From Patescibacteria group bacterium (GTDB lineage Bacteria; Patescibacteriota; Patescibacteriia; Magasanikbacterales; GWA2-37-8), in contig SCQK01000022.1 of assembly GCA_004321885.1 (NCBI GenBank), positions 1 to 3,770 of the forward strand: a stretch of 3,770 bases of DNA. Reading direction: 5' to 3'. This document shows, in pieces, positions 126 through 3,770 of the stretch. A model generated the notes under the pieces. The model did no database searches, had not been told where the DNA came from, and was given only the letters and a program-made list of their open reading frames with translations. Position 1 is the first letter of the stretch; each line of letters opens with the position of its first letter. A program made the position numbers and the translations under genes.

Positions 126-174
126 AAGGTTCGGTTTCGCGCTATAGTAGCCTTGGGCTGAAGGAACGTATGCG

Positions 175-218
175 CAACCCTTTGGAGTGTACTGCACTCC
201 AAAGGGTTGTTCTGTTTT
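175..218 (+). terminator. Intrinsic-terminator-like structure: a perfect 15-bp inverted repeat (CAACCCTTTGGAGTG / CACTCCAAAGGGTTG) with a 5-nt TACTG loop, followed by TTCTGTTTTG
   Basis: Read directly from the sequence. The arms are 175-189 and 195-209, and a T-rich tract follows at 210-218. On the minus strand the hairpin is not followed by a T-run, so if it terminates anything it does so for rightward (+) transcription. It could instead be a protein operator upstream of the 366 gene. Confidence 0.5.
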
Positions 219-365
219 GAGAAGCTGGGGTGCAGTAGGCGGGAAGCGATAGGAGCGTGACCCCTTCACCTGCTCTGGAGCGGAAATACCCCACGCGGCC
301 AGGGAAAGGATTGGCAAGGGGTGTTCCCTTCTGCCTTCCGAACACCAATCAAAAGGAGATTGAAA

Positions 366-524
366 ATGAAAACCAACCATCTTGTTCGCACACTGGCAGC
401 GTTCGTCCTATTGGCGGCGATCTTTACCTTCGCGTTCAGCGTGCAAGCCGCGTCGCCCAATGGTGTTGATCACCTTCGCGGCCGCTGGGACGGTACGCTC
501 CAAAACCTGTACGGGGACGACTAG
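366..524 (+). CDS. 52-aa ORF encoding a Sec-type signal peptide (MKTNHLVRTLAAFVLLAAIFTFAFSVQA, then ASPNG...) that ends at an in-frame TAG. It is probably the N-terminal part of the downstream secreted-protein gene, which would make the locus a pseudogene or a readthrough gene
   Basis: AAAGGAGA Shine-Dalgarno at 352-359, 6-7 nt before the ATG at 366. The peptide has a positively charged n-region (K, H, R), a 16-residue hydrophobic core and an A-x-A-like VQA cleavage site. The stop is TAG at 522-524. The reading frame (position mod 3 = 0) matches ORF 570..1595, and 525..569 contains no stop. Confidence 0.5.
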   Translation: MKTNHLVRTLAAFVLLAAIFTFAFSVQAASPNGVDHLRGRWDGTLQNLYGDD

Positions 525-569
525 CCTTTCCGCCTCCTGTTTGACCGTTCAGGGCCTGACCCAAACGAC

Positions 570-1595
570 TTGCAGGCTGCACTCTACAACGGATGTATGG
601 CCGTCGGCTCGGGCGGACAGTATACGCCCATTTCTGCTCGTGTGATCGTCAGCGGCAGCGGACAGTTTGATGTCACGATTTTCGGGACACCCCTGGGATC
701 GGTGATCAAACTAACAGGGTTGGCAGAGACGCGCGGAGCTGGCATTACGGATGATTCCGTCGACGGAGCGTGGCAGACTCAGGATGCCTGGGGCGATTGG
801 TCTGCCTTTCATCATGATCGACGCAACCCAAAATGCCCGGCAGTTGAGATAGGGAATGGTTTGCACTTCCGGGGTGACGTCTCTGCCGCCCGCTTTAAGC
901 GGGCGGCAGAAAGCATAGGTGAACAAACCATTCTTGAGGGCATGACCAATATCGTTTCGTCTGGGATGAGAGTGACTCTACCGGATGGAAACAGTGTGGA
1001 TGTTCCGTCCTACACTGATATTTTCTCTCCATCAGTAAATTTCATCGATTCATTCCGCTTCACGACCCTCTTCCCGGGCCTGCCAGTCAGCGGTGGTAAC
1101 CATGCATTCGCTCTTCTTGATATATTCGGCCAGCCAATTCCTGGTGCGACCTCCAACGATGTCTGGAACGCCTGTTTACAGGACGCACCGCGTAATGTTT
1201 CCGCGATCGTGAATGCTGATGGGATTCTCGCAACCTGGAATCCCGTTCCTGTTGTGCCCGGCTTTGACCCGAGCGGTAGTCCATCGCTGGGTTTCTATCA
1301 AATTGAGATTCGCCAGGATTTGGGTGGTGATCTTTATGGTGCGAGTCTCATCCTCAATAGTTCGCATTTAATTCCGTTCCTGGATTTCGGAGGCGTTGGG
1401 CCTGGCGTTCCCGATGGAAATAATTTTGGGAGCAGCCTGCTGGAATTAGGTAATGGCACCTACGTCTTCGACGTAATTGCTTTCTCCAAAGGTGTCCCTG
1501 GAACTGCTTCAGCCGGATTGGAATGTCAGGTCCGTGCCGTGGATGAGCAAATCCACTTCGAAAAATCGGGGGCCACGATTACCGTCCTACCTTGA
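570..1595 (+). CDS. Hypothetical secreted or cell-surface protein. It is rich in Gly, Asn, Ser and Thr, has 5 Cys, and carries a fibronectin type III-like domain at the C-terminus (about 1180-1592). The start is uncertain: TTG at 570, ATG at 597, or truly 366 if the TAG is read through
   Basis: A 341-codon ORF ending in TGA, with no transmembrane segment. The C-terminal segment reads ...ILATWNPVPVVPGFDPSGSPSLGFYQIEIRQDLG...GNGTYVFDVIAFSKGVPG..., which fits the FN3 pattern of a Trp in strand B, a Y-x-I/V-x-I/Y stretch in strand C and Y-x-F-x-V-x-A in strand F. No Shine-Dalgarno precedes either 570 or 597, and there is no signal peptide on this ORF itself. Antisense ORFs inside it are shadows. 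Confidence 0.7.
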   Translation: MQAALYNGCMAVGSGGQYTPISARVIVSGSGQFDVTIFGTPLGSVIKLTGLAETRGAGITDDSVDGAWQTQDAWGDWSAFHHDRRNPKCPAVEIGNGLHFRGDVSAARFKRAAESIGEQTILEGMTNIVSSGMRVTLPDGNSVDVPSYTDIFSPSVNFIDSFRFTTLFPGLPVSGGNHAFALLDIFGQPIPGATSNDVWNACLQDAPRNVSAIVNADGILATWNPVPVVPGFDPSGSPSLGFYQIEIRQDLGGDLYGASLILNSSHLIPFLDFGGVGPGVPDGNNFGSSLLELGNGTYVFDVIAFSKGVPGTASAGLECQVRAVDEQIHFEKSGATITVLP

Positions 1596-1655
1596 AAAGG
1601 CGATCGGCGCGAAAAACAAAGTCCTAGAAACCCCCACCTCCAACCCCCTCCCCCG

Positions 1656-2199
1656 ATAGGGCGCATCGCTGGGTTGCGCGAGGCGATCCGTTGGGTCAAC
1701 AAATTCCGGGGACACCACACGCAATGCGTGACGTTGTGCTGACGCCGCCATAGCGTGGCCGCGTGGCAAGAATCGCACGGATCGTCGCGCCAGGCCAACC
1801 CCATCACGTCACATAGCGGGGCAATCGCCGGTAGGCGACTTGTTTCTGTGAAGAGGACGATGCGACATACCTCCGCATGATGTCTGAGTGGTGCTCCCGC
1901 TGGAACGTGGAGGTGTGGGCGTACTGCTTGATGCCCAATCACGTACATATGATCGCGGTTCCCGTTTCAGGCGAAGGCAACGGTCTCTGAGGGTCACACC
2001 CTTGCTTGAAATGGTCTGGACTTGGCGGGACGTTCTTCTGAGTGACGTATCGGGTGACGAGCGTGACAGGATACGGCGTCATGAGAGGACGGGCAGACCT
2101 GTGGGGAATGACGGGTTTGTTGAAACGCTTGAACAGGCATCGGGTTGTATCCTGCACCGCCAGAAGCCAGGGAGGAAAAAGGGGCTGAACCGGAAATGA
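1656..2199 (+). pseudogene. Decayed IS200-like/RayT-like (COG1943, Y1 HuH tyrosine transposase family) gene. The start codon is mutated to ATA, there are at least 2 frameshifts, and about 85 aa are missing from the middle
   Basis: Frame 2, 1841..1990, reads CFCEEDDATYLRMMSEWCSRWNVEVWAYCLMPNHVHMIAVPVSGEGNGL and then a stop; the H-V-H HuH motif is at 1940-1948. Frame 1, 1981..2199, reads RSLRVTPLLEMVWTWRDVLLSDVSGDERDRIRRHERTGRPVGNDGFVETLEQASGCILHRQKPGRKKGLNRK and then a stop, which matches the conserved C-terminal tail of this family (...RTGRPLG.D.F...LE...GR.L.P.KPGRK...). Frame 0 from the ATA at 1656 reads IGRIAGLREAIRWVNKFRGHHTQ..., resembling the family N-terminus M-x-R-x-A/P-R-x-x-x-P-G-x-P-H-H-V-T-Q-R-G-N. 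The piece RGKNRTD at 1762.. lies in a third frame. The conserved region between the HuH motif and the V-x-P-L-L-E segment is absent. Confidence 0.6.
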
Positions 2200-2367
2200 G
2201 TATGGTGTCCCCCGACTAAAGACCCAGCGTTAGCCATCTACTGTGCAACGAAGTGTGGCGCTTAACAGGTAAGCGTGGCATACTGAACTTAAAGATTGCT
2301 CCGGTCTAGGCGTTAGGCTCAATGAATCAGCATTGACGGAATGTTGTCAGGAAGGAGAGACTAGACC

Positions 2368-2568
2368 ATGTCAAAGGTAGACGAACTCAAAACGGAAATC
2401 GAGCAACTTCCCCGGGAGGAGTTCTCGAAACTCATCCGCTGGCTGTCAGAAAAGGAATGGGAGAGGTGGGACAAGGAGATCGAAGCCGATTCTGAAACGG
2501 GAAAGCTGGATTTTCTGGTGCGTGAGGCGATTGACGCGAAAGCTAAGGGAAGTCTTAAGGACCTGTGA
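2368..2568 (+). CDS. Type II toxin-antitoxin antitoxin: a 66-aa acidic, helical protein
   Basis: AGGAAGGAGAG Shine-Dalgarno 8 nt upstream of the ATG at 2368. The protein is MSKVDELKTEIEQLPREEFSKLIRWLSEKEWERWDKEIEADSETGKLDFLVREAIDAKAKGSLKDL. The pattern L-P-x-E-E-x-x-x-L-x-x-W-L followed by W-x-R-W-D-x-x-I-E-x-D-x-x-x-G-K-L-D-x-L-x-x-E-A is typical of small addiction-module antitoxins. Its stop overlaps the start of the downstream toxin ORF (CTGTGA). Confidence 0.7.
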   Translation: MSKVDELKTEIEQLPREEFSKLIRWLSEKEWERWDKEIEADSETGKLDFLVREAIDAKAKGSLKDL

Positions 2569-2828
2569 GGCATCGTACGACAGCTCGGTTTTGGGCTCAC
2601 CTTGCTTGCCTTCCAGAAGGTGTCCAGAGAGTGGCCCGACGAAACTTCGCGCTCCTGAAAGAAAATCCTGCACATCCTTCGCTACACTTCAAAAAGGTTG
2701 GCAGGCTGTGGTCCGCGAGAGTTGGGCCTCATCATCGGGCGCTGGCGGTTGAGGACGGCGCGGATTTCATCTGGGTTTGGATCGGTGCTCACGATGAGTA
2801 CGAGCGAATCATCGAGCAGCAAGGCTAA
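2565..2828 (+). CDS. Type II toxin-antitoxin toxin of the RelE/ParE superfamily (ParE-like, HigB/YafQ-like mRNA interferase fold); 87 aa with a GTG start
   Basis: The GTG at 2565 overlaps the antitoxin stop by 4 nt (GTGA), and an AAGGA sits 4-5 nt upstream. The protein MRHRTTARFWAHLACLPEGVQRVARRNFALLKENPAHPSLHFKKVGRLWSARVGPHHRALAVEDGADFIWVWIGAHDEYERIIEQQG carries the conserved N-P-x-H-P-S-L ... W-S-x-R-I/V ... R-A-L ... W-x-W-I-G-x-H-x-x-Y-D/E-x-I/L signature seen in ParE-like and YafQ-like toxins. Its small size and its position downstream of the antitoxin also fit. Confidence 0.68.
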   Translation: MRHRTTARFWAHLACLPEGVQRVARRNFALLKENPAHPSLHFKKVGRLWSARVGPHHRALAVEDGADFIWVWIGAHDEYERIIEQQG

Positions 2829-2992
2829 CTCCTAGCTCCAGGTCAATCGCTAATCGCGACGGCTGAGCGATGCGTCAGGCTGTCACCTCTGTCCAACAAA
2901 CCAGAATTAAACGGGCGTTCCACCCCTTCCATTATACAAGCTCGCCTCCATGACTTCGATAGTCTCTTGCTCCCTCCTGAAATCCCCCCTCG

Positions 2993-3012
2993 CCCCCCTT
3001 TTGAAAGGGGGG
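2993..3012. repeat. Strong GC hairpin CCCCCCTTT-TG-AAAGGGGGG (a C6 stem, with an extra C6 run just upstream and a G7 run), not followed by a U-tract on either strand
   Basis: Read directly: 2984-2989 is C6, 2993-2998 is C6, 3007-3013 is G7. The stem has 6 GC pairs plus 2-3 AT pairs. Homopolymeric G7/C6 runs are also prone to slippage. Confidence 0.4.
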
Positions 3013-3398
3013 GAACTGAGATTGCCGCGCACCCGTCTGGTGCTACTCAGAAACTGGCTAAGTGGTCAGTTTCACAATTACGGTCACGTATCCGTTCGTG
3101 GTGAGCTTGTCGAACCATGAACGTGGAGGCCACCCTTCGACTGGCTCAGGGTGAACGGATTCGTGGCATAGCTATGAAATGCTATACTACGTTTCTCCCG
3201 TCTGCGGGTCAGCCTCGCCGGATGGATTACTCGCAACGACAGACAAACGAGCGGGTTGCGCGATCAATCTCTTCTCGGGTGCTGCCAAGCGATGCGGTCG
3301 CAGAACCCATCAGAAGGCGAGTGATGTTGCAAGCATTCAGGAGCCGAAGATGGGCTATGGAAGCGGATTTTTCTGGTGTGCTCTTCAGGAGAAAAGAC

Positions 3399-3427
3399 TT
3401 GACAGTCTTGGAATCGTTAGTAATATA
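3399..3427 (+). promoter_or_regulatory. Near-consensus sigma70 promoter: TTGACA (3399-3404), a 16-nt spacer, then TAATAT (3421-3426). The -35 element is embedded in the inverted repeat AAGACT-TGAC-AGTCTT (3394-3409)
   Basis: Read directly from the sequence. The -35 is a perfect consensus and the -10 matches 4 of 6 positions with a 16-nt spacer (TATAAA is also possible at a 19-nt spacer). The predicted transcription start at about 3433 leaves a leader of about 80 nt before the ATG at 3515. Confidence 0.5.
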
Positions 3428-3514: not shown

Positions 3515-3770
3515 ATGAATGACCCCGAAAAGGGCTCGGCGAGGTTAAGTTCTCTCAGAAAGACCATGCGGAAGCTCTCTGAGCAGCTTCCAGGGAGCGA
3601 CGCGACGTATCACCGTAAGCTTTCTCAATACGAGGATGAGATCGAGGTCCTCCAGGCGCAAGTGAAGACGCTCGAAGAGGAGATCTATCACCTGACGCGG
3701 CGACTGGACCAGACCCCGAAAGAGTTTGAGTTTCTCCGGTCCAAGCTCGACCAATCCCGCGAACAGTTGG
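3515..3770 (+). CDS. Partial (N-terminal 85 aa) hypothetical coiled-coil protein; the gene continues past the right edge
   Basis: AAGGAGG Shine-Dalgarno at 3498-3504, 10 nt before the ATG at 3515. The frame is open to the window end: MNDPEKGSARLSSLRKTMRKLSEQLPGSDATYHRKLSQYEDEIEVLQAQVKTLEEEIYHLTRRLDQTPKEFEFLRSKLDQSREQL, with heptad-like spacing of E, K, Q and L. It was missed by the ORF track because there is no stop in the window. The minus-strand ORF 3545..3754 is its Leu-rich antisense shadow. Confidence 0.65.
   Translation, partial: MNDPEKGSARLSSLRKTMRKLSEQLPGSDATYHRKLSQYEDEIEVLQAQVKTLEEEIYHLTRRLDQTPKEFEFLRSKLDQSREQL

Follow-up and report, generated by a model that had tools for sequence, protein, structure and literature searches.

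An amber codon within a secreted-protein gene of an Anaerolineae family, very probably a recent nonsense mutation

We analysed a contig of 3770 nt (the window; GC 54.6%) in which a gene for a secreted protein is interrupted by an in-frame TAG codon beginning at position 522. Comparison with intact relatives indicates that this stop is, very probably, an ordinary, recent and real nonsense mutation, which makes the gene either a young pseudogene or a null allele at the strain level. We infer that the T at 522 is present in the cells. The features of the gene are as follows.

366..1595, plus strand: one secreted-protein gene with an in-frame TAG inside it, recognised from full-length ortholog matches and 88-94% nucleotide identity to intact relatives.
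354..358, plus strand: Shine-Dalgarno sequence AGGAG, 7 nt 5' of ATG366, read from the sequence.
366..449, plus strand: Sec-type signal peptide of 28 codons ending in SVQA, with A as the next residue, recognised from sequence features.
462..494, plus strand: GVDHLRGRWDG motif, intact and 5' of the stop, from an alignment of 43 sequences.
522..524, plus strand: amber TAG, from CAG (Gln), with C as the next nucleotide; based on CAG in the relative L001, Gln in the relative protein P0178, and the ortholog column.
597..1595, plus strand: CDS of 332 aa in the NCBI annotation (TAN32130.1, EPN28_04935), the same translation as the database match P0002.

The original prediction had described a 52-aa ORF with a Shine-Dalgarno sequence and a Sec signal peptide that leaves only 24 residues, followed in the same frame by a longer ORF with poor starts, and we observed each of these elements in the sequence. 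The AGGAG at 354-358 is kept in both L001 and a second relative, L029. The N-terminus of the gene, MKTNHLVRTLAAFVLLAAIFTFAFSVQA before ASPNG, combines a basic n-region with a hydrophobic core and a VQA-A cleavage motif; an equivalent hydrophobic N-terminus, with A-x-A and APPNGVDHLRGRWDG after it, is present in every ortholog. The 52-aa product consists of the signal peptide plus 24 residues. The reading frame is the same at 366 and 570 (both 0 mod 3); it is open from 525 to 569, passes TTG570 and ATG597, and closes at the TGA at 1593-1595. Inspection of the sequence revealed no convincing Shine-Dalgarno sequence before either TTG570 or ATG597. The remaining stop codons of the window are TGA at 2197-2199, TGA at 2566-2568 and TAA at 2826-2828, such that TAG accounts for 0 of 4 window stops, in agreement with the earlier statement that the other genes end in TGA or TAA.

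We aligned the 409-aa conceptual fusion, with TAG read as X, to protein databases. The search matched 57 proteins, 36 of which (403-433 aa) cover 95-100% of the fusion at E<=1e-123, with a best E of 1e-227. Approximately 50 orthologs of 400-412 aa run continuously across the position of the TAG. None of the fusion-search matches is an ortholog whose start corresponds to 570 or 597; the lone short match is the window's own annotation, P0002 (TAN32130.1, 332 aa from ATG597). Nor did we find the 52-aa peptide conserved on its own, the other pattern that had been named as contrary to a single gene: GVDHLRGRWDG belongs to the full-length family. In the alignment of 43 sequences, this is the most conserved motif of the family, with G33, V34, D35, L37, R38, G39, R40 and W41 invariant or nearly so, and the TAG column holds Gln in 27 of 42 orthologs. 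The window gene has the features of the family, namely full-length colinear homology, the signal peptide and GVDHLRGRWDG, but its frame is interrupted.

Two intact relatives from Logan assemblies are the nearest to the window gene. L001 (SRR22388342) has 88% nucleotide identity to it and encodes protein P0001; L029 (SRR22387773) has 94% nucleotide identity over 332-1598 and encodes P0178 (409 aa), to which the fusion is 91% identical (374 of 410 positions). L001 reads GACGACCAGCCT at the site where the window reads GACGACTAGCCT, and P0178, encoded by L029, has Q at the site of the TAG. Given CAG or Q at this site in both of the nearest relatives, the lesion is a single C-to-T transition at 522 that changed CAG to TAG. 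The continuity of the orthologs, with Gln at the site, and the CAG of the nearest relatives bear out the proposal that one gene has been split by a single amber codon.

An AlphaFold2 model of P0001, an ortholog with 83% identity, was built from a 51-sequence alignment (pLDDT 90.9, pTM 0.82). It consists of a helix at residues 5-22, a low-confidence disordered linker at 24-32, and an all-beta body with an FN3-like C-terminal domain. Strand 1 (39-48) of the model carries the RGRWDG part of the motif. Residue 53, the position of the TAG, is in strand 2 (51-65) of an N-terminal avidin-like barrel, and Met78, the residue encoded by ATG597, is inside strand 3 (68-80). By this model, the 52-aa product holds only the signal peptide and one barrel strand.

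These observations suggest the following course of events. The ancestral gene encoded a Sec-exported all-beta protein in which the signal peptide is followed by an avidin-like 8-stranded barrel, then by a middle beta domain, and at the C-terminus by an FN3-like domain. The C-to-T change at 522 turned the conserved Gln53 codon CAG into amber TAG, such that translation from the strong Shine-Dalgarno sequence and ATG366 would end after 52 residues. Re-initiation at TTG570 or ATG597 would yield a product that has lost the export signal together with about 2.5 strands of the barrel; in the model this holds for the 332-aa CDS because Met78 is in the middle of strand 3. Both the 52-aa product and the re-initiated product should be non-functional, and the allele would represent a recent loss of function within decaying, mobile-element-rich DNA. 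Judged from its sequence, the 332-aa CDS of the NCBI annotation (EPN28_04935) represents only the 3' part of the interrupted 409-aa gene, and it ought to be annotated as a pseudogene.

Beyond TAG522, we found no further stop or frameshift in the CDS. Of the 91 alignment columns in which the other orthologs are conserved at >=90%, the window differs at 2, as does P0001. Pairwise dN/dS between the window and L001 is 0.38. Lineage changes were polarised with L001 as the outgroup. On the branch leading to the window there are 25 non-synonymous and 19 synonymous changes (omega 0.42); the branch of L029 has 10 and 13, respectively (omega 0.25). The non-synonymous fraction in the window lineage is significantly under the neutral expectation (p=0.007). 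An omega below neutral, together with the lack of any other lesion, indicates that the stop is recent. Non-synonymous changes are more numerous in the window lineage than in that of L029 (25 vs 10, p=0.017), an excess that would fit a short period of relaxed constraint. The ratio of non-synonymous to synonymous changes does not differ significantly between the two lineages (Fisher p=0.32), such that relaxed selection is only hinted at. Overall, the pattern fits purifying selection over most of the branch with constraint lost only recently, and it is also compatible with a base-call error.

A second locus in the window, 3' of the secreted-protein gene, also contains in-frame TAG codons.

1763..2199, plus strand: remnant of a REP-associated/IS200-like Y1 transposase gene, from a PF01797 match and 222-aa homologs that align to both halves.
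1814..1816, plus strand: in-frame TAG at a conserved Gln (HHVTQRGN); Q in homologs, CAG in the relative contig L002, TAG likewise in the Logan contig L030.
1832..1834, plus strand: in-frame TAG at a conserved Gln (GNRRQ); Q in homologs, CAG in L002, TAG likewise in L030.

Both Gln sites are invariant in nine homologs (HHVTQRGNRRQ). Relative to the 222-aa homologs, the remnant has an internal deletion of ~80 aa, common to L002 and L003, each of which has further lesions of its own; a 1-nt deletion near 1986 is particular to the window copy. The PF01797 match covers only profile positions 32-56 of 121, leaving the Y1_Tnp domain incomplete, and the NF047646 match of a full-length transposase homolog is under the family cutoff. 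On the strength of these lesions, the transposase remnant is a pseudogene. Its two TAGs are real to the extent that an independent run supports them: L030, a contig of that run, matches the window over 1582-3004 with 100% identity. The window's in-frame TAGs, three in total, are each a CAG-to-TAG change, with CAG in relatives at each site (L001 and L029 for 522, L002 for the remnant sites). In a simple neutral simulation, at least two stops, all of this type, arose in the 75-codon N-terminal part of the remnant with a probability of ~7e-4, in a test that was post hoc. The coincidence of three Gln-site TAGs is probably due to chance, and the mutational causes considered below do not account for it.

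We considered several mutational causes for these changes. C-to-T hypermutation or deamination was rejected: the window-specific changes in the remnant are mixed, with C>T or G>A in 7 of 31, and relative to L001 the window has fewer differences with T/A for C/G than the reverse (38 vs 56). A Dcm-like 5-methylcytosine hotspot at CWG was also rejected, since CWG accounts for 8 of the 71 C>T-type differences, as compared with a background of 14%.

The near-intact state of the secreted-protein gene might instead mean that T522 is an artefact of sequencing, consensus calling or strain mixing, in which case the actual genome would have CAG at this site and an unbroken gene of 409 aa. Consistent with this, the rest of the gene looks functional, with no other lesion, an omega of 0.42 and intact motifs. 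The contig is also short (3770 nt), and Logan assemblies of the same runs break at 1582 without a complete copy of the gene, which suggests low coverage or strain variation in the region. Logan contigs identical to the window begin only at 1582, that is, 3' of position 522, and we found no independent copy of T522 by exact-product look-ups of the 332-, 341- and 52-aa ORFs, or by scanning JGI metagenomes for the DNA pattern that surrounds the TAG. By contrast, the contig elsewhere is reproduced base for base in two other assemblies, including the TAGs of the remnant: window positions 1582-3004 have a 100% identical counterpart in the Logan assembly of each of two separate runs (SRR8426592 and SRR8426596). 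Moreover, there is no damage-like excess of C-to-T changes relative to the relatives, and true nonsense alleles are commoner, by orders of magnitude, than consensus substitution errors that happen to place a stop in one particular 1.2-kb gene. We therefore consider an artefact unlikely. Still less credible, to the point of being extremely improbable, is the existence of two genuine genes, one for a 24-aa secreted peptide and one for a separately started cytoplasmic protein of 332 or 341 aa. The NCBI annotation agrees with this arrangement in placing a 332-aa CDS at ATG597; however, all full-length orthologs are continuous and none starts there, neither 570 nor 597 is preceded by a Shine-Dalgarno sequence, and the 332-aa product is predicted to begin inside a beta-strand of the barrel. 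The 52-aa peptide does not stand alone either, since an exact look-up was empty and the motif is present only within long proteins. The earlier judgement that a separate small-peptide gene is the less likely arrangement is upheld by these results.

The stop might also be read as Gln, at least partly, by a supE-like tRNA-Gln(CUA), a code-15-like reassignment, or near-cognate readthrough at TAG-C. Genetic code 15, in which TAG encodes Gln, is found in some phages and eukaryotes, and C after a stop codon, as at TAG522, is a weak context for termination in E. coli. In favour of such decoding, each of the three in-frame TAGs of the window is at a conserved Gln codon, none of the four window stop codons is TAG, and the secreted-protein gene is otherwise intact. 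An early TAG-to-Gln reassignment or a tRNA-Gln(CUA) would allow CAG-to-TAG changes to be tolerated, and would explain both the three Gln-site TAGs in 3.8 kb and the lack of a TAG-ended gene; we regard this scenario as very unlikely. Relatives at 88-94% nucleotide identity carry CAG rather than TAG, and L002, which is 89% identical to the window at the nucleotide level in common regions, has TAG as the stop codon of 5 of its 9 called genes. The C at 522 in relatives and the use of TAG as a stop in relatives disfavour recoding or suppression, and TAG-to-Gln decoding was rejected as the main explanation on these grounds. Two of the three in-frame TAGs are in a dead gene with a deletion and a frameshift, and since the transposase remnant is dead anyway, decoding of TAG as Gln cannot explain its stops on Gln codons.

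Searches for the machinery of suppression or readthrough gave a similar picture. ARAGORN detected no tRNA in the window, including any with anticodon CUA, and an Rfam search of the window gave no match. There is no unusual RNA structure around or after the TAG: the 121 nt from 510 to 630 fold like shuffled sequence (z=0.33), and dS is 0.6 for codons 54-77, just 3' of the TAG, indicating that there is no hidden conserved RNA element there. We saw no signs of programmed readthrough or pyrrolysine, in that a stimulatory RNA element is lacking and the homologs have plain Gln. A six-frame scan with TAG as a sense codon lengthened two coding regions, those of the secreted-protein gene and of the transposase remnant, and no others. 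In the searched text of two genome-wide code screens, covering 250,000 and ~2.7 million assemblies, bacterial TAG reassignment is not mentioned (PMC8629427; bioRxiv 10.64898/2026.04.02.715157). Overall, partial or complete reading of this TAG as Gln appears highly doubtful; suppression, if true, would matter for genetic-code biology, and otherwise not. Of the three causes that the original prediction had set side by side, a recent nonsense mutation is the one that stands; sequencing or assembly error keeps a small share of the probability, and recoding or suppression is disfavoured by the CAG codons and TAG stops of the relatives.

Pfam and NCBIfam searches of the secreted protein gave no family match, and by the distribution of its relatives the family is an unnamed one, found only in Anaerolineae/Chloroflexota. 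Some members among P0019, P0032 and P0047-P0052 are fused to periplasmic-binding-protein domains (PF13458/PF01094) or CarboxypepD_reg domains (PF13620/PF13715), and several ortholog genomes encode a separate CarboxypepD_reg protein just upstream. The domain fusions and the CarboxypepD_reg neighbour are hints of an extracellular, ligand- or surface-associated role. This well-folded, secreted, three-domain family is confined to Anaerolineae, has no entry in Pfam or NCBIfam, and could be described. The 22 genome loci of the relatives are from Anaerolineae, Anaerolineales or Chloroflexota MAGs, except for one labelled "uncultured delta proteobacterium" and one labelled "Chloroflexia". The deposited label for the contig that encodes TAN32130.1-TAN32132.1 is "Patescibacteria group bacterium". 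Since relatives of the secreted-protein gene are almost only from Anaerolineae/Chloroflexota, this label is most likely a binning error, and the contig has probably been mis-binned.

The homology of the window to L001 and L029 is limited to 332-1598, whereas L001 and L029 match each other well past the gene on both sides. In more distant orthologs, the gene is flanked by genes for a CarboxypepD_reg protein and a GAF histidine kinase, a context that is absent from the window. The gene sits in rearranged, mobile-element-rich DNA, where decay is common. About 150 nt 5' of the gene, a terminator scan identified one further feature.

174..218, plus strand: terminator-like, perfect 17-bp hairpin with a T-tract.

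The relatives lack this hairpin, which falls in a gap of the alignment with L001. A promoter-like site at 121-148 (CTGACA-16-TATAGT, 10/12) is ~25 nt before the hairpin, and 121-218 could be a small transcript, or the outward promoter of an IS end plus a terminator. At the left end of the window, a minus-strand ORF that starts with MKGIPQGRYTKEFRAEAVK occupies 1-126 and runs off the end; it presumably resembles the N-terminus of an IS3-family OrfA. Further 3', two small genes at 2368-2568 and 2565-2828 overlap by 4 nt, and the second matches a ParE-like toxin (PF24732, E=9e-6); on the basis of this match and arrangement, the pair at 2368-2828 is probably a toxin-antitoxin system. L002 has BrnT/BrnA-type pairs at the equivalent place. 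Relative to L002, the window has a 185-nt insertion at 3045-3229 with an imperfect inverted repeat of 30-nt arms (3085-3114 and 3136-3165; DNA fold z=-4.3), which looks like a REP/MITE-type element. Sequence of a similar flavour (GAGCTTGTCGAA) is present upstream of the L029 ortholog. Lastly, a near-consensus promoter at 3399-3426 (TTGACA-16-TAATAT) is ~90 nt 5' of a good Shine-Dalgarno sequence and ATG3515, from which a coiled-coil-like ORF (3515-3769) runs off the right end.

The secreted protein resembles avidin/streptavidin-like 8-stranded barrels and FN3 domains at the level of fold only, with sequence identities of 4-14%; its three-domain architecture and GVDHLRGRWDG motif are specific to the Anaerolineae family and are not shared by avidin or FN3 proteins. 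The transposase remnant shares the N-terminal HHVTQRGNRRQ and LMPNHVH motifs and the C-terminal RRHERTGRP with RAYT/IS200-like Y1 transposases; unlike these proteins, it lacks ~80 middle residues, its frame is broken, and two of its Gln codons are now TAG. With supE suppression and code 15, the window has in common in-frame TAGs at sites where homologs have Gln. Unlike in those systems, only one TAG here is in an otherwise intact gene, the window contains no suppressor tRNA, and close relatives carry CAG and stop genes with TAG; a bacterial precedent, moreover, goes unmentioned in the searched text of the two genome-wide screens. The closest parallels are classical amber alleles and young pseudogenes, which have the same single Gln-to-TAG transition in an otherwise intact gene, with intact orthologs nearby. 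A 5-methylcytosine hotspot of the lacI type is not supported in our case, and nothing essential differs from the classical alleles. Decaying loci are typically found amid IS and transposase debris, as is this gene.
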